Origin: an uncultured Ignavibacteria bacterium
GTDB lineage: Bacteria > Zixibacteria > MSB-5A5 > SM1-73
NCBI GenBank assembly: GCA_964588305.1
Contig: CAZPOP010000001.1
Coordinates: forward strand, 56,736 to 120,735
Direction: 5' to 3'
Length of the DNA stretch: 64,000 bases
Under the pieces are notes generated by a model. It was not told the origin of the DNA, searched no databases, and worked only from the letters and a program-made list of their open reading frames with translations. A program made the position numbers and the translations under genes. Of the stretch, positions 5,260-13,733 are shown piece by piece. Numbering within the stretch: the stretch's first letter is position 1; every line of letters starts with the position of its first letter.

Positions 5260-6147
5260 ATGAAAACCTATTTAGATTGTGTCCCTTGCATAATTGAACA
5301 GACAATTAAAGCTGCCAGAGATTTGACCCAAGATTTGGAAAAACAGGAAAGCCTGTTACAGAAGGTATTGGAGATCCTCAGCAACATCTCCTACAACCAG
5401 TCTCCACCTTATCTGGGGAGAGAGGCACATCGGGTGATCCGCTCCATTCTGAATAATCCCGATCCTTATTCAAAACTGAAAAGACGGTTCAACCAGGTGG
5501 GGAAAGAGCTCTTTCCTTCCTTGCAGGAGCGGGTCAATGATTCGAAAGACCCGTTCGCCCAAGCAGTGAAGCTGGCCATTGCCGGTAACATCATCGATTT
5601 TGGTCCCCCGCATCACTTCGAGTTGAGAGAAACCATTGACAAAGCTTTGAAGGCGAAGCCTGCCATTGACCATACCGAGAGTTTAAGAGAAGACATAGAG
5701 TCAGCCTCGACCATCCTCTATCTGGGAGACAATGCTGGGGAGACCTTCTTTGACAGGATACTGATCGAACAAATGCCGGCCAAGGAGATTTACTTTGGGG
5801 TGAGGGGCAGTCCGGTGATAAACGATGCCACCTCGGAGGATGCCTACTGGGCGGGATTAGACAAAAGGACCAAGATCATCTCCAATGGCTCGGATGCCCC
5901 AGGAACCATACTTGAAGATTGTTCTAATGAATTCCAGGACCTCTTTGCCAGATCCGATCTGGTGATCGCCAAGGGACACGGAAACTACGAAACCTTAAGT
6001 GAGGTGCAGGGGAAAAGACTCTATTTCCTTCTCATGGTGAAGTGCGAAACCATAGCCAAGGATATTGGCTGTTCGGTCGGGGAATTCGTGGTCAAGAAAA
6101 CAGAGAGCGTCTTGGAGCCAAAGGCGCAGGCGCTTGGGAAAAAATGA
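5260..6147 (+). CDS. DUF89 / ARMT1-like (damage-control phosphatase family) protein
   Basis: The N-terminus MKTYLDCVPCIIEQ and overall size are typical of DUF89. RBS GGAGGAAGG is upstream. Confidence 0.6.
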   Translation: MKTYLDCVPCIIEQTIKAARDLTQDLEKQESLLQKVLEILSNISYNQSPPYLGREAHRVIRSILNNPDPYSKLKRRFNQVGKELFPSLQERVNDSKDPFAQAVKLAIAGNIIDFGPPHHFELRETIDKALKAKPAIDHTESLREDIESASTILYLGDNAGETFFDRILIEQMPAKEIYFGVRGSPVINDATSEDAYWAGLDKRTKIISNGSDAPGTILEDCSNEFQDLFARSDLVIAKGHGNYETLSEVQGKRLYFLLMVKCETIAKDIGCSVGEFVVKKTESVLEPKAQALGKK

Positions 6148-6395
6148 GACCTGACTTTTGGCCGAAGCCGTGCCGTATCGGGGGAATATTGGCAAAGGAC
6201 GTCCCATCTCTCCAGGCAAGGGTCGAGGGTTAGGGTACTCGCAACCAACTGTTCATTCAGAATCCGAGGCAAGGACCTTATTCTATTGCCCGACTTTGTC
6301 GGGTCACTCAGAGGCACTTCCCTTTTTGGAATTTACACACAACTCGAAGTAAATCCACACAGACGATAACCTCCAAACAAAGCCAAGAAAACCTA

Positions 6396-6424
6396 TTGAC
6401 TTTCGTAAGAGAATAAGATAAGAT
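6396..6424 (+). promoter_or_regulatory. Candidate sigma70-like promoter upstream of the YdiJ-like oxidoreductase
   Basis: TTGACT, then 17 nt, then TAAGAT, about 95 nt upstream of ATG 6519. Confidence 0.3.
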
Positions 6425-6518
6425 TGGAATAGGGAAAACCAATTTATCTTGGAGTCGGACAGAAACACGAATGTCATTAAGGAAGTTTCTTCGATAATCT
6501 TTTACAAGAGAATATAAT

Positions 6519-9500
6519 ATGGCAGGAAAAATGAATCCGGGGCGGCAATCATGGCTGCGAGAGAAATTTGGCAGCCGGGTGAGCTTCAACCGGATCGAGC
6601 GCAAACTGTACGGTCACGACATCGCTGCCATGCCCAGTTTGTTCAAACCGATTATAGGGAACACAATACCGGAGGCGGTGGTTCAGCCGGAGACGGAGCA
6701 CGAGGTCGTCGAGCTGGTACGTTGGGCGGTCACAAACAACATTGCACTGACTCCCCGGGCCAAAGCATCATCCGGCTATGGTGGAGTGATCCCGGTCAAG
6801 CAGGGATTGGTTGTTGACTTTTACCGAATGAAAAAGATTCTGCGCGTCGATGCTGAGGCTCAGACTGCGACGGTTGAAGCGGGAGTGGTTTGGGAGGCCC
6901 TGGACAGGGAACTGGCCAAGCACGGCTTAACTTTGCGGCTCTATCCCAGCAGCTATCCGTCGTCCACTGCCGGCGGCTGGCTGGCTCAGGGCGGTGCCGG
7001 GTTCGGTTCTTACGAGGCTGGTTGGTACCGCGACAACGTGCTGAGCGTCAGGGTGGTGTTGCCCTCCGGGGAGGTGCGCGCGTTTGCCGGCGATGAGTTG
7101 GACCTCATCGCTGACGCGGAAGGCATAACGGGTCTTATCACCGAGGTCACCCTCAAGGTTCAGCCGCTTGAAGAACTTGATGTAGTGAGCATCGGCTGCC
7201 CCAATCCGCATGACCTGCAGCGTCTGATAGAGTCGATCCTCGGCTCGAATTTGCCTATCTGGTCGCTGGTCTTCATCAATCCCAGAATGGCTGAGCTCAA
7301 GAACCGGGCACCTTTGATGGAGCATTACGGGCACCCGGTCGAGGAGCGCGTGCTGCTGCCCGCCGCATACATCATAACTTTAGCTTACCGCAAAAAAGAC
7401 CGCGGATCAGTCACGGACAAGCTGCCAAAACTTCTGAAGCAGTGCGAGGCAGAAATCCTGAGCGAGCGCATAGCTGAGCATGAATGGAAGAACCGGTTCA
7501 AGCTCATGATCGTAAAGCGGCTTGGGCCTTCGTTGGTGCCGGCTGAAGTCGTTATCCCGCTTTCTAACTTGGGAAAGGTGATGACCGAGATCGAGGCCGA
7601 GATTAACCAGCCTTTGGTCAAAGAGGGTTTGGTTATCCGGCAGGGTGCGGGCGGTAAGCCGGAGGTCATCATCCTGGGTTTCATCCCCAGTGACGAGCGC
7701 AAGTTCAGCTACAACTTCGTCTTTGCTTTGGCATTGACTTTGATGAAGATCGCGGAGAAGCACGGTGGTCGACCATACGCAACGGGCATGTATTTCGGAA
7801 GTCAGGCTGACGTTATCTTGGGTAAAGAGAGAGTACAAAAGCTGCGCGCCTTCAAGTCGCAGATCGATCCCAAAGGTATCATGAATCCGGGCAAGGTTAT
7901 TGGCAGAGGGTTGGTTGGCACAACGCTGAGCTTGGCCCGCGCGTTCGAGCCGCTGGTTCGCCCCTTTGGCAATCATGTCATAGCCCAGGTGGGCGAGCGT
8001 CCGACTAAGCCCGTAAGAGGCATTCCGGCGGACGTGGCCTGGTACGCATATGGCTGTTCTCAGTGCGGCTACTGCATCGACGAGTGCGACCAGTTCTACG
8101 GCCGAGGCTGGGAAAGCCAGAGCCCCCGAGGAAAGTGGTACTGGCTTCGGGAGTACATGGAAGGTCGCGAGGAGTGGACCCAGTTCATGGTGGATACCTT
8201 CTTAGTCTGCACTACCTGTGAGTTGTGCAACCTGCGCTGCTCGGCAGTCTTGCCTATTGAGCCGTCGTGGATGAAGCTGCGGGGCAAGCTTATTCATGAA
8301 GACAAGAGAATGACTTTCCCGCCTTTTGAGATAATGGCAGCCGCTCTGCGGGCCGAGGGCGACATCTGGGCCGGTTATCGCAAAGACCGGTCGAATTGGT
8401 TTCCCCCGGACCTTTTGGCAAAGCATGGGCCGGGTCGGAGGTCTAAGAATGTCTACTTTGCTGGCTGCACGGCAAGCTACGTGGAAAAGGACATAGCCAT
8501 GGCCAGCGTACGCTTGCTGGACGAGGCGGGCGTGGATTTCACCTATGTGGGCGAAAAGGAAAACTGCTGCTCCACCCCCATGTTGGTGGCCGGAAAATGG
8601 GACGTATTCCTTGAGACCATGAACAAGAATCTACAGGCAGTCAAGGAGACCGGAGCGGACACGGTGATCTGCTCCTGTCCTGCCTGCGACATGATGTGGC
8701 GCCAGGTGTATCCGAGATGGGCCGAGAAGCTTGGCATTGAGTATGGGATTACCGCCAGGCACTACAGCGAGATCCTATCAGAGAAGATCAAGGCCGGCCA
8801 GTTCAAGTTCCCTCCCAACGACAAGCAACCAGTGACGGTTTCCTGGCATGACTCGTGCCACATAGGTCGGGTTTCTGGAGTGTATGAGCCCCCGCGAGAC
8901 CTGATCAAGGCTATCCCCAACGTGAACTTGGTCGAGATGAGTCACAACCGGGAGGATGCACACTGCTGCGGCTCGGTTCTAACTTTAATTAAGGAGCCGG
9001 CAGTGGCTTATGAGATTGGTCGGACCCGTCTGGAAGAGGCGATTGAAGCCGGGGCAGAAAAAGTTTTGGCCCTGTGCCCTTGCTGTGAATTTCAGTTCCG
9101 GGTGGCCGCAGAAAAGAAGAAAGTCCCGGTAGAGATCGTGGATTTAGCCCGTTTCGCCTCATCGGCACTGGGCTACGAATTCCCCGATCCGCATCCGGAA
9201 GTGGAAGCCCAGTGGGCAGTCTTCGATGCGATGATCGCCCTGATGACGCCGGAAGGCTTCGCTGAGCTGATGAAAACCATGTGGCCGGAGCTTATCAGAG
9301 CCATGCCCTTCAAGATGGGGACAATGATGCGCGTCATGGGGAAGATTCCCGGTGCGCCGAATTTGATGAAGCCGTTGTTCCCTATCCTCTTCCCCAGGCT
9401 CTTGCCAAAGATGATGCCAAAAGTCATGGCGGTGATGCTAAAACGAGTAGGTGAGCGCATCCCCATGCCCGACTACATGGCCGAACAGATGCCGGAGCTG

Positions 9501-9599
9501 ATGCCGAAAGTTATGGACAACCTCATGCCTCACATGATTGGTGATGTGGTTCCCTTAGTAACACAGCCGATGATCGATCACCTAAGAGGAAAGAATTAA
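6519..9599 (+). CDS. FAD-linked oxidase (GlcD-like) fused to 4Fe-4S and two CCG (GlcF/heterodisulfide-reductase-like) domains; YdiJ-like oxidoreductase
   Basis: The N-terminus is an FAD_binding_4/oxidase region. Central region has Cx2Cx2Cx3C clusters (CSQCGYCIDEC, CTTCELCNLRC). The C-terminus has two CCG-type Cys motifs (CCSTP...CPAC, CCGS...CPCC). Total length is 1026 aa. Confidence 0.8.
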   Translation: MAGKMNPGRQSWLREKFGSRVSFNRIERKLYGHDIAAMPSLFKPIIGNTIPEAVVQPETEHEVVELVRWAVTNNIALTPRAKASSGYGGVIPVKQGLVVDFYRMKKILRVDAEAQTATVEAGVVWEALDRELAKHGLTLRLYPSSYPSSTAGGWLAQGGAGFGSYEAGWYRDNVLSVRVVLPSGEVRAFAGDELDLIADAEGITGLITEVTLKVQPLEELDVVSIGCPNPHDLQRLIESILGSNLPIWSLVFINPRMAELKNRAPLMEHYGHPVEERVLLPAAYIITLAYRKKDRGSVTDKLPKLLKQCEAEILSERIAEHEWKNRFKLMIVKRLGPSLVPAEVVIPLSNLGKVMTEIEAEINQPLVKEGLVIRQGAGGKPEVIILGFIPSDERKFSYNFVFALALTLMKIAEKHGGRPYATGMYFGSQADVILGKERVQKLRAFKSQIDPKGIMNPGKVIGRGLVGTTLSLARAFEPLVRPFGNHVIAQVGERPTKPVRGIPADVAWYAYGCSQCGYCIDECDQFYGRGWESQSPRGKWYWLREYMEGREEWTQFMVDTFLVCTTCELCNLRCSAVLPIEPSWMKLRGKLIHEDKRMTFPPFEIMAAALRAEGDIWAGYRKDRSNWFPPDLLAKHGPGRRSKNVYFAGCTASYVEKDIAMASVRLLDEAGVDFTYVGEKENCCSTPMLVAGKWDVFLETMNKNLQAVKETGADTVICSCPACDMMWRQVYPRWAEKLGIEYGITARHYSEILSEKIKAGQFKFPPNDKQPVTVSWHDSCHIGRVSGVYEPPRDLIKAIPNVNLVEMSHNREDAHCCGSVLTLIKEPAVAYEIGRTRLEEAIEAGAEKVLALCPCCEFQFRVAAEKKKVPVEIVDLARFASSALGYEFPDPHPEVEAQWAVFDAMIALMTPEGFAELMKTMWPELIRAMPFKMGTMMRVMGKIPGAPNLMKPLFPILFPRLLPKMMPKVMAVMLKRVGERIPMPDYMAEQMPELMPKVMDNLMPHMIGDVVPLVTQPMIDHLRGKN

Positions 9600-9871
9600 A
9601 CGCGCCCGATATTTGGCGGGAGATTTCGGCCTTCCTCTCTGGCTGGGAACCACGACTGTAATCGCTTCCTCTCGGAACAAGTCTTCGCTTTAGATGGTTC
9701 AATGTTAGCGGTTGCCGAAGGTAAATGGCCTTGACACTTCTTTGTGGATTTTTCATGAGGAATGCCGTGGGCATGATTTCTCGAAAATGAGTCCTTGATG
9801 CCGATATATCAAATGAAGAATCTCTTTTCAGAAATCCCTGGGGAGATTTCTTAATCACCAAAGGTCAACAT

Positions 9872-10852
9872 ATGCTGAAAACGACAGTTGTGGGAAACTA
9901 TCCTAAGATAACGGCGGACAAATCTGCTCCCAATCTCAGATCGGCGCTCAACAAGTTCGATCGAAATAAGATTTCCGAGGAGGAACTGGAGAGGGTTTAT
10001 CAGGAAACTATCCAGAGAGTGATAAGAGAACAGGAAGAGGCAGGCGTGGACCTGATCACCGACGGACAGATCAGGTGGGATGATCCGGTTACTCCATTTG
10101 CCAGAAATATCGATGGACTGGAGGTTGGTGGTTTGATTCGTTTTTTTGACAACAATGTTTATTACCGAAGACCTGTGGTCAAATCCAAGCTGGCATTCAA
10201 GGACTATTCAACCGTGGAGGAATTTGCATTCTTAAAACGGAACTCAACTAAGGAAGTCAAAGCAGTCATTGTCGGCCCGTTCACCTTTGCCAACCTTGCA
10301 AAGGATGAATACTATAACGACATTGACAAACTCACTTTGGATCTGGCCGAAATCCTGAAAAAAGAGGCAAAGAAGTTAGAGGAAGCGGGTGCAGAATTTA
10401 TTCAGATCGATGAGCCTTCATTATGCTTTTCACCCGAGAAGATCGATCTGGCAAATCAAGCAATTAAGGTCATTACCGACGGTTTGAAGGCCAAGACCTT
10501 CTTGTACCTTTATTTCGGGGGGATCAAAAATCTGATTCCCGCACCTTTTGATTTCCCGGTCGACGGGATCGCAATCGACGTTGTCAGCAGACCTGAGAAT
10601 CTTGATCTTATATTGGAAGGTTCATTTGACAAGGAACTTGTCTTGGGCTGTTTGGATGCAAGGAACACAAGGTTGGAGGAAGAAGAGGAGCTTTTGAAGC
10701 TATTCCAGAGAACAACTCAGAAGATTTCCAGTGAGAGGATATACGTCAGTCCATCCTGCGGGCTGGAGTTTCTGCCTCATGAGGCGGCACTCGCGAAATT
10801 GAAAAGGATGGTGCAGTCGGCAAAGAAGTTCAATCTCGGCGGAGACGATTGA
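9872..10852 (+). CDS. MetE-like (UROD/MetE superfamily) protein lacking the zinc-ligand His-x-Cys; resembles MetE N-terminal (folate-binding) domain
   Basis: Clear similarity to cobalamin-independent methionine synthase domains (VGNYPK, DGQIRWDD, IQIDEP, SPSCGLEF). The position of the HxC zinc motif reads FLYLYFGG. Confidence 0.6.
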   Translation: MLKTTVVGNYPKITADKSAPNLRSALNKFDRNKISEEELERVYQETIQRVIREQEEAGVDLITDGQIRWDDPVTPFARNIDGLEVGGLIRFFDNNVYYRRPVVKSKLAFKDYSTVEEFAFLKRNSTKEVKAVIVGPFTFANLAKDEYYNDIDKLTLDLAEILKKEAKKLEEAGAEFIQIDEPSLCFSPEKIDLANQAIKVITDGLKAKTFLYLYFGGIKNLIPAPFDFPVDGIAIDVVSRPENLDLILEGSFDKELVLGCLDARNTRLEEEEELLKLFQRTTQKISSERIYVSPSCGLEFLPHEAALAKLKRMVQSAKKFNLGGDD

Positions 10853-10870
10853 CCAACTGAAGAGGTTGTG

Positions 10871-11836
10871 ATGTTGCTTACTACCACAGTGGGAAGCTTT
10901 CCCAAACCCGATTATCTGGTCAAAGCAAGGAATCTGTTCAGCCGGAAAAAGATCAGCGAAGATGAACTGAGGGAGCTGGAGAGGAAAGCTACGCGCGAGA
11001 TTATAAAACTCCAAGAGGGAATAGGCCTGGATATTCTGGTGCACGGCGAGATGGAACGCGCCGATATGGTGACCTTTTTTGCCGAGAGACTAGAGGGCTT
11101 CGGCATAAGTGGCCTGGTCCGTTCCTATGGCAACAGATACTACAAAAAACCAATTGCTAAAGGGAAGATCAAAAGAAATCATCCCATCGCCCTGGAGATG
11201 TTCCAATATGCGCAGAGCTTGACCCAAAAACCGGTAAAGGGAATGCTTACCGGTCCCTATACCATGTGCGACTGGTCCTTTAATGAATACTTTCCAACAC
11301 GGCGGGATTTGGTTTTGAATTTGGCAGAGGTGGTTCATCAGGAGGCTTTAGATCTGGATCACGCGGGAGCGAAATACATTCAGATAGACGAGCCAGCCAT
11401 CTCCACCCGTCCTTCGGAGATTGATCTGGCAATCGAGGCCATGAAGATCGTTACCGATGGTTTGAGGGCTAAGACCGTTTCTCACATCTGTTACGGAGAC
11501 TTCACCACCATCTATCCCAGGATTCTTAGTCTCGCGGTGGATCAACTGGATTTGGAGTTCGCCAATAACGACTTTGCCAATCTGGAGATTTTCAAGAATC
11601 CCCGCTTCACCAAAGAGATTGCCGTGGGCGTCATCGATGTGCATTCGCACGTGATTGAGACCAAGCAGAAGGTGAAAAGTAACATCAAAAGGGCGTTAGA
11701 GGTTTTTCCTCTGGAAAAGGTCTATATCGACCCGGATTGCGGCTTGAAGACCAGGACGCTGGAAGAGTCAGAGGCGAAGCTGAAGGTTATGGTGTCGGCT
11801 GTGAGGGAAGTTAAGGAAGAAATGGGGCTGAAATAA
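10871..11836 (+). CDS. Core cobalamin-independent methionine synthase (MetE C-terminal catalytic domain-like) with intact Zn ligands
   Basis: VGSFPKP, VHGEMERADMV, IQIDEPA and the SHICYGDF (H-x-C) and DPDCGLK Zn-ligand motifs. ATG at 10871, with an in-frame GTG at 10868. Confidence 0.7.
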   Translation: MLLTTTVGSFPKPDYLVKARNLFSRKKISEDELRELERKATREIIKLQEGIGLDILVHGEMERADMVTFFAERLEGFGISGLVRSYGNRYYKKPIAKGKIKRNHPIALEMFQYAQSLTQKPVKGMLTGPYTMCDWSFNEYFPTRRDLVLNLAEVVHQEALDLDHAGAKYIQIDEPAISTRPSEIDLAIEAMKIVTDGLRAKTVSHICYGDFTTIYPRILSLAVDQLDLEFANNDFANLEIFKNPRFTKEIAVGVIDVHSHVIETKQKVKSNIKRALEVFPLEKVYIDPDCGLKTRTLEESEAKLKVMVSAVREVKEEMGLK

Positions 11837-11837
11837 A

Positions 11838-13733
11838 ATGGCAGATCCATTTTTGGAAAGACTGAAAAAGGGAACCATGCTCTGCGACGGTGCCATGGGA
11901 ACTCTGCTTTACTCCCGAGGAACAGGATTCGAGCATCCCTTTGATGAGCTGAATCTGTCTAAGCCGGACATGGTTCAGAAAGTCCATCAGGATTATATCA
12001 AGGCCGGAGCAGAGATTATCGAGACCAACACGTTCGGAGGGAACAGATACAGGCTGGGCGCTCATGGGCTTCCGGGAAGAATCAGAGAGATCAACATCAG
12101 AGGAGCAGGTATTGCCCGGGAGGCACGAGAGATTGAGGGTGAACCTGTCTTTGTGGGCGGGTCGATCGGACCTCTGGGAAGACCGCTGGCTCCCATCGGA
12201 AAGATCACCTCAAAGCAGGCTTTTGAAGCGTTTCAGGAGCAGGCAGAAGCACTGGCTGAAGCCGGAGTGGATCTTTTCATAATCGAGACCTTTTCCGATT
12301 TGGTTGAAATCAAGGAAGCTATCAGAGCCGTAAGAGGAGCATCCAAGCTACCGATCATTGCCCAGATGACATTTACCGAGGAGGGTTTGACCTTGATGGG
12401 CCACACACCTTCCGGGATTGCCAAAGAGCTGGAAAAGATAGAGGTTGACGTCATTGGCGTCAATTGCAGCGTAGGCCCGCAAAGGGTTCTGGATGCAATT
12501 CACCAGATGAGAAAAGTCACCTCTTCCAAATTATCTGCTCAGCCCAATGCAGGATTCCCCAGGTTTGTGGACGGAAGATTCATATATCTTTCCTCGCCGG
12601 AGTATTTTGCAGAATATACCAAGAGATTTCTCAGCGCTGGGGTGGCGGTTTTGGGAGGTTGCTGCGGCACCACGCCTGAGCACATTCAAGCCATGGCCAA
12701 GGTGCTCAAAGAGAAAGAATCCGGCTCAAATGAAAATGCCGGAGTAATCGAAGTCGAAAGAGAGTTCGAGGAGCAAGTCACCGTAGAAGAGTTGATTGAA
12801 CCCTCGACTTTTGCTTCTAAACTGAAAGAGAAATTCGTGATCTCGGTGGAATTGGATCCTCCCCGCGGCGTGAATCCCAAAAAGGTTTTAAGGCAAGCTC
12901 AATTGATCAGGGACAGGGGCATCGATGCGGTGAACATAGCCGACAGCCCCATGGCCAGGGTCAGGATGGGCTGTCTTTCTTTGGCCGCTCTGGTCAAAGA
13001 GAAAGTAGGGCTGGAGGTTATTCTTCATCTGACCTGCCGGGACAGAAACCTTATGGGACTGCAGTCCGATCTGATGGGAGCGCACGCTTTGGGCATTCGG
13101 AGTATACTTGCCGTAACCGGCGATCCTCCCAGATTGGGAGATTACCCTCATGCCACGGCAGTCTATGACGTCGATTCCATAGGTTTGGTAAAGATAATCA
13201 AGAAGCTGAACCAGGGCACGGACTGGGCCGGCAACTCCATAGGCTCGCCCACCTCCTTTTGTACCGGGGTAGGCGCAAATCCGAATGCACTCGATTTTGA
13301 AAAGGAAATGGAGAGATTGAGGCAGAAAGTTGAAGCCGGTGCAGATTTCATCTTCACTCAACCTCTGTATGATAATGAAACCTTGAATGGTTTTTTGGAA
13401 AGAGCGCAAGGGTTGAATCTTCCTATTCTGGTGGGCCTGCTCCCCTTGCACAGCTTCAGACAGGCGGAGTTTTTGCATCATGAAGTCCCAGGCATTGCCA
13501 TCCCTCAGAACATACGAGACAGAATGAAAAGCGCGGGTGAAAGGGGAATAGAAGAAGGCATTACTATCGCCAGAGAATTCTTAGAAGAGATTAAACAGAG
13601 AATTTCCGGAGTTTATCTGGTTCCCTCCTTTGGAAAAGTCGAGTTGGCATTGGAAGTAGTAGAAGATATCTCCTTTTCAAAATACCTTTCCTCTCCACAA
13701 AGCGACGGGGGTAGAAACCCTTTCACAGCGTGA
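11838..13733 (+). CDS. Bifunctional homocysteine S-methyltransferase / methylenetetrahydrofolate reductase (YitJ-like fusion)
   Basis: The N-terminal half is an Hcy-binding S-methyltransferase domain (CDGAMGT, ETNTFGGN, GGCCGTTP). The C-terminal half is MetF-like (ILHLTCRDRN, AVTGDPP). Confidence 0.8.
   Translation: MADPFLERLKKGTMLCDGAMGTLLYSRGTGFEHPFDELNLSKPDMVQKVHQDYIKAGAEIIETNTFGGNRYRLGAHGLPGRIREINIRGAGIAREAREIEGEPVFVGGSIGPLGRPLAPIGKITSKQAFEAFQEQAEALAEAGVDLFIIETFSDLVEIKEAIRAVRGASKLPIIAQMTFTEEGLTLMGHTPSGIAKELEKIEVDVIGVNCSVGPQRVLDAIHQMRKVTSSKLSAQPNAGFPRFVDGRFIYLSSPEYFAEYTKRFLSAGVAVLGGCCGTTPEHIQAMAKVLKEKESGSNENAGVIEVEREFEEQVTVEELIEPSTFASKLKEKFVISVELDPPRGVNPKKVLRQAQLIRDRGIDAVNIADSPMARVRMGCLSLAALVKEKVGLEVILHLTCRDRNLMGLQSDLMGAHALGIRSILAVTGDPPRLGDYPHATAVYDVDSIGLVKIIKKLNQGTDWAGNSIGSPTSFCTGVGANPNALDFEKEMERLRQKVEAGADFIFTQPLYDNETLNGFLERAQGLNLPILVGLLPLHSFRQAEFLHHEVPGIAIPQNIRDRMKSAGERGIEEGITIAREFLEEIKQRISGVYLVPSFGKVELALEVVEDISFSKYLSSPQSDGGRNPFTA

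Follow-up and report, generated by a model that had tools for sequence, protein, structure and literature searches.

In a 64,000-nucleotide stretch of contig CAZPOP010000001.1 from an uncultured Ignavibacteria bacterium (the window), we identified a gene for a flavin adenine dinucleotide (FAD) and iron-sulfur oxidoreductase whose last 137 amino acids (aa) are rich in methionine (Met) and proline (Pro). This tail is almost certainly a genuine, conserved and folded domain. The enzyme as such is a cytoplasmic, self-contained FAD / 2x[4Fe-4S] / 2xCCG oxidoreductase that is distinct from YdiJ, GlcDEF, LdhH and EtfD, and the tail marks out a subfamily of GlcD-HdrD-type flavo-iron-sulfur oxidoreductases that had not been described before. 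We tentatively favor the reading, which we hold at somewhat below even odds, that the tail is a Met-lined hydrophobic binding module for a lipophilic partner at the CCG end of the electron wire.

Composition and conservation of the tail

The tail (aa 890-1026) contains 22 Met (16.1%) and 19 Pro (13.9%), compared to 2.5% Met and 6.1% Pro in residues 1-889. Among the 46 long open reading frames (ORFs) of the window, which comprise 17,539 aa with 1.98% Met, every other 137-aa stretch has at most 9 Met. The binomial probability of finding at least 22 Met is 5.6e-14, and that of at least 19 Pro is 4.4e-6. The Met/Pro enrichment reported in the original prediction, which was made from the letters of the window, is thus real, and the peptides it quoted and the repeated M-P-x-x-M / LMPKVM units are all present. 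There are two copies of MPKVM (aa 966-970 and 995-999), Met residues are spaced four apart at 983/987/991/995/999/1003, and Pro recurs at every fourth or eighth residue (955/959/963/967 and 992/996/1004/1012). MxxxM and MxxM spacings are abundant. Tandem Repeats Finder detected no tandem DNA repeat in the tail, and the two direct repeats present are short and at chance level. The two longest predicted helices, 5 and 6, show weak internal similarity to each other (local score 42 versus 23.9 +/- 4.9 for shuffled sequences; 10 of 2000 shuffles scored at least as high).

With the tail alone as the query, 431 proteins were retrieved, of which the best 120 were 75-91% identical across the whole tail. 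A search with the full protein gave 120 full-length homologs of 1022-1047 aa and 75-96% identity, and the tail was present in all of them. The mean column entropy in these homologs was 0.23 for the ferredoxin segment, 0.495 for the tail, 0.63 for the CCG domains and 0.69 and 0.78 for the FAD domains. The tail is therefore the second most conserved segment of the protein, with only the ferredoxin segment lower in entropy. It had been described as a low-complexity repetitive run, a description that does not fit a segment with position-specific conservation, a confidently predicted six-helix fold and no DNA repeat. The homolog set was too uniform for coevolution analysis.

Conservation extended to distant relatives. 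Among 1.84 billion representative proteins, phmmer found 214 matches. All complete ones were 1000-1030 aa long with the same architecture and a tail identity down to 33%, and the apparently short matches were contig-edge fragments or frameshifted calls. The tail was found only as the C-terminus of FAD + 2x[4Fe-4S] + 2xCCG proteins, and it evolves at the rate of the core: tail and overall identities were 69 and 66% in P0249, 47 and 45% in P0296, 43 and 41% in P0322, and 33 and 37% in P0384. When 20 distant tails (30-50% identical) were aligned, 17 had a Met content of 14-22%. M929, P930, P984 and P996 were kept in all 20 rows, M950 in 19 (the remaining row is gapped), and P955, P992 and P1004 in 19. 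One clade (P0289, P0335 and P0376) has only ~10% Met, with Leu or Val instead at many sites.

The original prediction had raised the possibility of a frameshift near position 9180. The linker between the second CCG domain (CCG2) and the tail has a mean identity of 0.82, with G885 invariant and F888/P889 at least 90% conserved, and the junction as a whole (aa 871-899) is nearly invariant and in the same frame in the 120 homologs. In two pairwise ortholog comparisons, the proportion of nonsynonymous differences (pN) in the tail was 0.08-0.12 and that of synonymous differences (pS) 0.7-0.9; synonymous sites are saturated, so these values support pN << pS and not a dN/dS value. Because the junction is nearly invariant in-frame and pN << pS, a frameshift or read-through artefact is excluded. 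Frameshifted assemblies do exist, since short ORFs start inside the CCG domain on long contigs (P0036 and P0087, for example). However, the frame and length were the same in the 120 homologs and at the best 80 genome loci, and the confidence of the structure prediction is high. A spurious low-complexity C-terminus produced by frameshift, read-through or mis-assembly is thereby refuted, and we give it practically no chance.

Several matches were irregular. P0010, P0029, P0036 and P0087, on contigs of 22-150 kb, are ORF calls of 151-217 aa that start inside CCG2 and have out-of-frame N-termini; the enzyme gene is frameshifted or split in these assemblies. P0273 and P0289, considered as stand-alone or differently fused tails, were rejected as contig-edge fragments. 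P0303 (L084:1217-1894), a 225-aa ORF on a single 2.3-kb contig, was considered as an alternative fusion and judged not trustworthy. In this ORF, a complete Met/Pro tail follows ~60 residues from the N-terminus of an alpha/beta-hydrolase; the join lies at '...GLGIEHPDP', which resembles both parents, and the ORF could be either a remnant of a gene or a chimera of the assembly. A long tblastn span at L030 was rejected as an insertion and assigned to an adjacent FAD-domain paralog: in this one metagenome-assembled genome (MAG), the enzyme gene is directly followed by a second FAD_binding_4 paralog (L030:4456-5883) with 34% identity to aa 50-217. Among 72,556 plasmids, tblastn detected nothing that matched the tail.

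Predicted fold of the tail

AlphaFold2 (AF2) predicted the tail alone, from 40 sequences, as six helices (aa 892-908, 911-919, 922-927, 933-941, 946-980 and 985-1022) with a predicted local distance difference test score (pLDDT) of 91.6 and a predicted template modeling score (pTM) of 0.80. With the full-length alignment (pLDDT 82.6, pTM 0.79), the tail was again all-helical, with pLDDT of 75-89 in the tail blocks and 87-93 in the linker. Disorder, for which a check had been suggested, is not indicated by either the model of the isolated tail or its column entropy. Judging from these models, the tail is probably an autonomously folding all-alpha domain of ~135 aa. It had no match among the Pfam or NCBIfam models, nor in the PDB by sequence or by fold, and literature searches returned no paper describing the tail domain or the enzyme family.

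The residues MLIVFWC account for 43% of the tail and STNQ for 7%. This suggests a hydrophobic surface larger than a 137-aa helical domain can bury alone. The tail has 15 K/R and 14 D/E, giving a net charge of +1 in the window protein; the family consensus has -4. Charge is unevenly placed, with 7 K/R and 1 D/E in helix 5 and 1 K/R and 6 D/E in helix 6, and these opposite charge stripes suggest that the two helices form a salt-bridged hairpin. The hydrophobic periodicity of these two helices peaks at 90-95 degrees, with a peak at 90 degrees in helix 5 (period 4.0, moment 0.55) and a period of 3.8 and moment of 0.34 in helix 6, while the moment at 100 degrees is 0.10 in both. Because the period is ~4.0 and not 3.6, the apolar stripe would wind round the axis of a regular alpha-helix. 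Such a pattern is compatible with helices that the Pro ladder has under-wound or that are buried on more than one side, and does not fit a flat in-plane membrane helix. Short segments of the tail have hydrophobic moments >0.5. The window tail contains no Cys, most aligned tails contain none or almost none, and His1005 is not conserved. A continuous helix carrying such a Pro ladder would be structurally unusual, and AF2 may over-regularise the helices in this region (9354-9584, aa 946-1022).

Domain architecture of the enzyme

Pfam placed FAD_binding_4 at aa 51-187 (E = 6.4e-39), FAD-oxidase_C at aa 221-460 (E = 2.9e-8) and CCG in two stretches (E = 2.3e-30), the second at aa 774-861, with no match beyond residue ~870 of the 1026-aa protein. 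The FAD module matched glycolate oxidase and D-lactate dehydrogenase in the PDB by sequence, and the N-terminal half matched mouse LDHD by Foldseek (E = 3.5e-22, TM(target) 0.79). By its domains and fold, the protein is a VAO/PCMH-type FAD-linked oxidase of the GlcD / D-2-hydroxyacid dehydrogenase branch. In 52 sequences, down to 37% identity, Cys 513/516/519/523 and 564/567/570/574 were invariant and constitute two CxxCxxCxxxC ferredoxin motifs. The CCG Cys 650/683/684/720/723 and 780/816/817/853/855/856 were also invariant and form two complete CXnCCGXmCXXC motifs, with G818 following C817. With both ferredoxin motifs and both CCG motifs, the protein has an HdrD/GlpC-type Fe-S module. Its Fe-S half aligned to HdrB and to residues 395-744 of the mycobacterial EtfD chain 9ojn_A in the PDB sequence search. 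The Pfam domains agree with the original prediction that the protein outside the tail is a complete oxidoreductase with an FAD oxidase, 4Fe-4S and two CCG domains.

At the sequence level, a candidate GEHG-type active-site His (H415, in 'KHGG') is present in the window protein and in P0384 and absent in P0296 and P0322. Because this His is not kept in divergent orthologs, the substrate is uncertain. The N-terminus (MAGKMNPGRQSWLREKFGSRV...) showed no hydrophobic signal segment and no twin-Arg (Tat) motif when read by eye, without a dedicated predictor. The maximum mean hydropathy over 19 residues (KD19) was 1.29 across the whole protein, and no 19-residue window reached transmembrane hydrophobicity.

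Table 1 Positions of the enzyme gene, its parts and the neighboring genes in the window.
Feature	Position	Strand	Description or basis
Whole gene	6519..9599	+	ORF, 1026 aa; cytoplasmic FAD / 2x[4Fe-4S] / 2xCCG oxidoreductase with C-terminal Met/Pro-rich domain
FAD-linked oxidase module, GlcD / D-2-hydroxyacid dehydrogenase fold	6669..7898	+	Pfam, PDB sequence, Foldseek
Ferredoxin-like dicluster domain, aa 513-576	8055..8246	+	Pfam Fer4_17 and invariant Cys columns
Two CCG (HdrB/HdrD-type) cysteine-rich domains, aa ~641-870	8439..9128	+	Pfam CCG
Conserved CCG2-tail linker, aa 871-889, ending ...DLARFASSALGYEFP	9129..9185	+	Homolog alignment
Met/Pro-rich C-terminal domain, aa 890-1026	9186..9596	+	Composition, entropy, AF2
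Long helix 5, aa 946-980, Pro ladder 952/955/959/963/967, basic polar stripe	9354..9458	+	DSSP of AF2 models
Long helix 6, aa 985-1022, Met every fourth residue (983-1003), acidic polar stripe	9471..9584	+	DSSP of AF2 models
Stop codon	9597-9599	+	
Radical-SAM protein, 311 aa	4312-5247		Upstream
ARMT1-like/DUF89 damage-control phosphatase, 295 aa	5260-6147		Upstream; apparent pair with the radical-SAM gene, 12-nt gap
Two short MetE-like (Meth_synt_2) proteins	9872-10852, 10868-11836		Downstream
Fused homocysteine S-methyltransferase and MTHFR (YitJ-like)	11838-13733		Downstream

Taxonomic distribution

A scan of one genome per species found a relative of the enzyme in at least 571 genomes. Neighborhoods were counted at the best 80 loci, whose proteins are at least 69% identical over the full length. 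These 80 carriers belong to Zixibacteria, Anaerolineae, Dehalococcoidia, Caldilineae, Gemmatimonadota, Ignavibacteria, Syntrophaceae/Smithella, Desulfarculaceae, Desulfomonilia, Phycisphaerales, WOR-3 and archaea; the breadth of the family is further illustrated by carriers in Chloroflexota, Syntrophia, Planctomycetota, Aquificota and the methane-oxidising archaeon Ca. Methanoperedens. The identity of at least 69% across domains of life implies recent horizontal spread under strong constraint. The archaeal proteins (L022, L059, L077, L057 and L064, from Ca. Methanoperedens and 'uncultured archaeon') are 69-73% identical to the bacterial window protein, which implies inter-domain horizontal transfer. 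L059 is Ca. Methanoperedens sp. BLZ2 (NZ_NTMG01000078.1). A divergent ortholog with 45% identity, tail included, was found in cultured Desulfurobacterium species (WP_076712547.1 in D. indicum).

Gene neighborhood

The gene neighborhood was not conserved across the 80 loci, save for an upstream ArsR-family regulator. A gene for an ArsR/SmtB-family regulator of ~110 aa lies directly upstream on the same strand at ~31 of the 80 loci and is immediately adjacent in 22 (examples are L004:5651-5986, L014:5640-5972 and L050:5609-5956). Of 31 such regulators, 30 have a Cys ahead of the DPxRL helix and 28 contain at least two Cys. Their nearest solved relatives are HlyU, BigR, PagR and SqrR, not SmtB, CzrA or CadC, and the best specific NCBIfam models were BigR and TsoR, both below cut-off. 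A literature search found no paper on 'TsoR' together with 'ArsR'.

At eight Smithella/Syntrophaceae/Desulfomonilia loci (L031:4650-5939, L044, L058, L060, L066, L069, L072 and L073), a gene for a FadL/TodX outer-membrane channel (Pfam Toluene_X) separates the ArsR gene from the enzyme gene, which hints at a hydrophobic substrate. In Desulfurobacterium indicum (MOEN01000006.1, L090), the genes for a regulator (5709-5987), the enzyme (6001-9093), a FadL-type channel (9145-10356) and AhpC (10411-10881) form an apparent operon. The regulator here is a CsoR/RcnR-family repressor with Cys37 and Cys66 and with Tyr62 at the position of the Cu(I)-ligand His. Chain 7mq1, a persulfide-sensing CstR, has Asn where Cu(I)-sensing CsoRs have this ligand His.

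Other recurrent neighbors were flavin/FMN reductases, WrbA-like proteins, nitroreductase, rhodanese or rhodanese-rubrerythrin, and OsmC, and the stress-defence neighbors also included rubrerythrin, AhpC and desulfoferrodoxin. Rhodanese-domain proteins are encoded within a few kb of the enzyme gene at L019 and seven other loci; the one at L019:2267-3112 is fused to a rubrerythrin/ferritin-like domain. At L002, rubrerythrin and an ArsP_1 + HMA permease flank the enzyme gene, and in one Gemmatimonadota genome the upstream gene encodes an ArsP_1 + HMA permease. The regulators, FadL channels and rhodaneses are a hint of reactive-sulfur or stress chemistry. No cytochrome b, HdrE-type or electron-transfer flavoprotein (ETF) partner gene recurred beside the enzyme gene at the 80 loci, nor did msrA or msrB recur among the neighbors.

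The window has no ArsR gene directly upstream (6148-6518). Its own setting, from the radical-SAM/ARMT1-like pair to the methionine-synthesis genes, was seen at none of the 80 related loci. Rfam at gathering thresholds gave no match in the whole window, and thus no SAM or B12 riboswitch between the enzyme gene and the methionine-synthesis genes. The idea that the Met richness of the tail is connected with the methionine-biosynthesis genes beside it was considered and dropped, since the arrangement is found at 0 of 80 related loci and looks coincidental.

Possible functions of the tail

By analogy with EtfD and HdrBC, electrons from a substrate oxidised at the N-terminal FAD would pass to the two [4Fe-4S] clusters and on to the two CCG-domain clusters. 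The Met/Pro domain, fixed to CCG2 by the conserved linker, would then offer a deformable Met-lined surface or pocket. The lipophilic partner bound at the CCG end could be the head group of a membrane quinone; another candidate is a hydrophobic S-S compound such as a polysulfane, S8, or an organic persulfide or disulfide. The domain would then fill the role that falls to the cytochrome b membrane subunit in HdrDE and EtfD. Binding of such a partner is supported by the high apolar content of the tail, the conserved CCG2-tail linker, the lack of a recurrent cytochrome b, HdrE or ETF neighbor, and the FadL channels. The electron wire of EtfD, the CCG subunits at the quinone pool and the Met-lined grooves of other proteins, all described below, also speak for it. 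A loose precedent is sulfur oxygenase reductase, where conserved Met pairs gate the sulfur-substrate pore (PMC7398979).

Several points weigh against this reading. The net charge of ~0 to -4 disfavors binding to anionic membranes, the clade with ~10% Met shows that Met is not strictly required at many positions, and no such domain is needed by other CCG proteins to reach their partners. In addition, many carriers are Dehalococcoidia MAGs. Cultured relatives of these reportedly respire without quinones, which weakens the quinone version.

The family may, more specifically, consist of reactive-sulfur-inducible S-S reductases (acting on persulfide, polysulfane or S8) or of thiol:acceptor oxidoreductases of anaerobes, a proposal that we put forward as a long shot. 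Here, two-Cys ArsR-type (HlyU/BigR/SqrR-like) or CsoR-type (CstR-like, without the Cu-ligand His) regulators would derepress the gene, and a FadL-type channel would admit a hydrophobic sulfur compound. The Met/Pro 'ladder' would serve as a new kind of thioether-lined binding module that passes the sulfur chain to the HdrB-type CCG clusters, with electrons supplied by a 2-hydroxyacid oxidised at the FAD. The S-S chemistry typical of CCG clusters, together with the FadL channels, the rhodaneses and the thiol-type regulators, makes a reactive-sulfur substrate an attractive though unproven version.

The tail could instead be a structural or oligomerisation domain that caps or braces the CCG module or mediates a homodimer, with Met and Pro serving an unusual packing and no ligand bound. 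The compact and confidently predicted fold, the charge stripes that suggest an intramolecular hairpin between helices 5 and 6, a period-4 apolar stripe as expected of helices buried on several sides, the replacement of Met by Leu/Val in one clade, and a rate of evolution equal to that of the core are all consistent with this. We nevertheless consider it rather unlikely, as it leaves a Met content of 14-22% over deep divergence unexplained, given that Leu or Ile would pack equally well, and as related FAD/Fe-S/CCG enzymes are stable without the tail. An in-plane amphipathic anchor, with the helices embedded at the membrane interface so that the soluble enzyme is held there as a monotopic protein, would agree with the short segments of high hydrophobic moment, with the lack of a conserved membrane partner gene nearby, and with the precedent of SdhE, GlpC and GlcF, CCG subunits that have been proposed as monotopic anchors (PMC2754724). 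The geometry of the long helices, with their low moment at 100 degrees, the net charge of +1 or -4 and the absence of any segment at transmembrane hydrophobicity argue against an anchor, as does the AF2 model, which is a compact globular domain and not a set of extended helices. We regard an anchor as unlikely.

A soft-metal site made of Met thioethers, binding Cu(I)/Ag(I) or possibly Hg or As for sensing, sequestration or catalysis, appears very improbable. In its favor, MxxxM and MxxM spacings are abundant, the neighboring regulator families (ArsR/SmtB and CsoR/RcnR) include metal sensors, and the ArsP_1 + HMA permease lies upstream in the Gemmatimonadota genome. Against this stand the near absence of Cys from the tails, the unconserved His1005, the Met-to-Leu replacements in one clade and the lack of an evident signal or Tat peptide on reading the sequence. 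Met-only Cu(I) sites are typical of periplasmic proteins, and the Met-rich Cu segments known so far differ from the tail domain in being flexible and poorly conserved. The adjacent regulators, too, lack metal-sensor signatures: the CsoR-like neighbor has Tyr at the Cu(I)-ligand His position (compare Asn in 7mq1) and the ArsR neighbors are nearest to HlyU/BigR/PagR/SqrR. Only a small chance is likewise left to an antioxidant shield, in which surface Met would scavenge oxidants, guard the O2-sensitive CCG clusters and be regenerated by methionine sulfoxide reductases. Scavenger peptides rich in Met are known, stress-defence genes (rubrerythrin, AhpC, desulfoferrodoxin, OsmC, WrbA-like/FMN reductases and nitroreductase) are frequent neighbors, and the adjacent regulators are two-Cys types. 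A generic sink, however, would require no fixed fold and no conservation of Met, Pro, Trp and Phe at particular positions, and msrA/msrB are not recurrent neighbors.

The original prediction had proposed a Cu(I)/Ag(I) site or an amphipathic membrane-docking helix, by which the tail might tether the enzyme to the membrane or to a partner. Both the Cu site and the amphipathic anchor are weakly supported by our analysis, for the reasons given above. While the canonical anchor is weakened, general docking to a hydrophobic partner survives and remains the best guess.

FAD/Fe-S/CCG fusion enzymes are common in anaerobes, and their electron hand-over is usually unclear. The subfamily described here is widespread in anoxic habitats and horizontally mobile, spans bacteria and archaea, and has the ~135-aa domain with its period-4 Met-Pro ladder as its signature. 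Knowing the ligand of the tail would probably reveal the physiological partner of the enzyme, and add a new domain family and fold. If the link to sulfur or stress is true, the subfamily would represent a widespread redox-defence or sulfur-cycling activity in anoxic sediments. The ortholog in cultured Desulfurobacterium makes the question experimentally tractable.

Comparison with known systems

The dense MxxM/MxxxM spacings of the tail resemble those of periplasmic Met-motif Cu(I)/Ag(I) proteins (CusF, CopC/PcoC, the Met-rich insert of CueO and the Mets motifs of Ctr1). The window protein differs from these in being cytoplasmic, in lacking conserved His, Trp or Cys co-ligands in its tail, and in the conservation of the tail fold. 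Flexible Met-lined grooves bind hydrophobic ligands in the SRP54 M domain, Get3 and calmodulin, which are Met-rich and helical like the tail. No sequence or fold similarity to them was detected, and the regular Pro ladder and period-4 pattern are features of the tail and not of these proteins.

The original prediction had called the enzyme YdiJ-like. This stands as an analogy of architecture: E. coli YdiJ, a D-2-hydroxyglutarate dehydrogenase, is similar in length (1018 aa) and combines an Fe-S segment with FAD_binding_4 at its N-terminus. Orthology, however, is ruled out. By BLASTP, the two proteins share 31% identity over 145 aa of the FAD domain and nothing else significant, and the YdiJ model NF049975 scored 64.6 bits against a cut-off of 1350 and covered only aa 48-194. 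Moreover, E. coli YdiJ has neither a Pfam CCG domain, of which the window protein has two, nor a Met/Pro tail.

Dld-II, the glycolate oxidase GlcDEF, the quinone-dependent lactate dehydrogenase LdhH and the glcD-hdrD pairs of MCR-encoding archaea couple FAD_binding_4/FAD-oxidase_C to Fer4 and CCG, as in the window protein, and have been proposed to link oxidation of lactate or 2-hydroxyacids to reduction of quinone or heterodisulfide (PMC3949148; bioRxiv 10.1101/390617). NCBIfam equivalog scores were far under their cut-offs (LdhH 127.8/800, GlcD (TIGR00387) 104.5/567.9, GlcF 51.1/333). The alignments of the LdhH, TfrB, GlpC and GlcF models stop at residues ~863-878, the end of CCG2, and leave the tail uncovered. 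Together with its absence from E. coli YdiJ, this supports the view that the tail is specific to the family. In GlpABC, GlcDEF and type E SQR, it is presumably the CCG subunit that meets the quinone pool (PMC2754724). For CCG proteins without transmembrane helices, membrane or quinone contact has been proposed to occur via amphipathic helices inside the CCG domains (PMC2754724), with no added Met/Pro domain.

HdrDE and EtfD share with the window protein a ferredoxin-like dicluster followed by two CCG domains, with all cluster Cys conserved. Residues 395-744 of EtfD (9ojn) align to residues 547-883 of the window protein (E = 1e-20), and in the EtfD structure Fer4 and the two CCG domains form an electron wire from the flavoprotein to heme b and menaquinone (PMC13083937). 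The membrane link of HdrDE and EtfD is a five-helix cytochrome b domain or subunit, whereas the window protein has no transmembrane segment or heme domain and has, unlike them, an N-terminal FAD oxidase and a C-terminal Met/Pro domain. The C-terminus of EtfD (residues 778-1042) is disordered, while that of the window protein is predicted to be folded.

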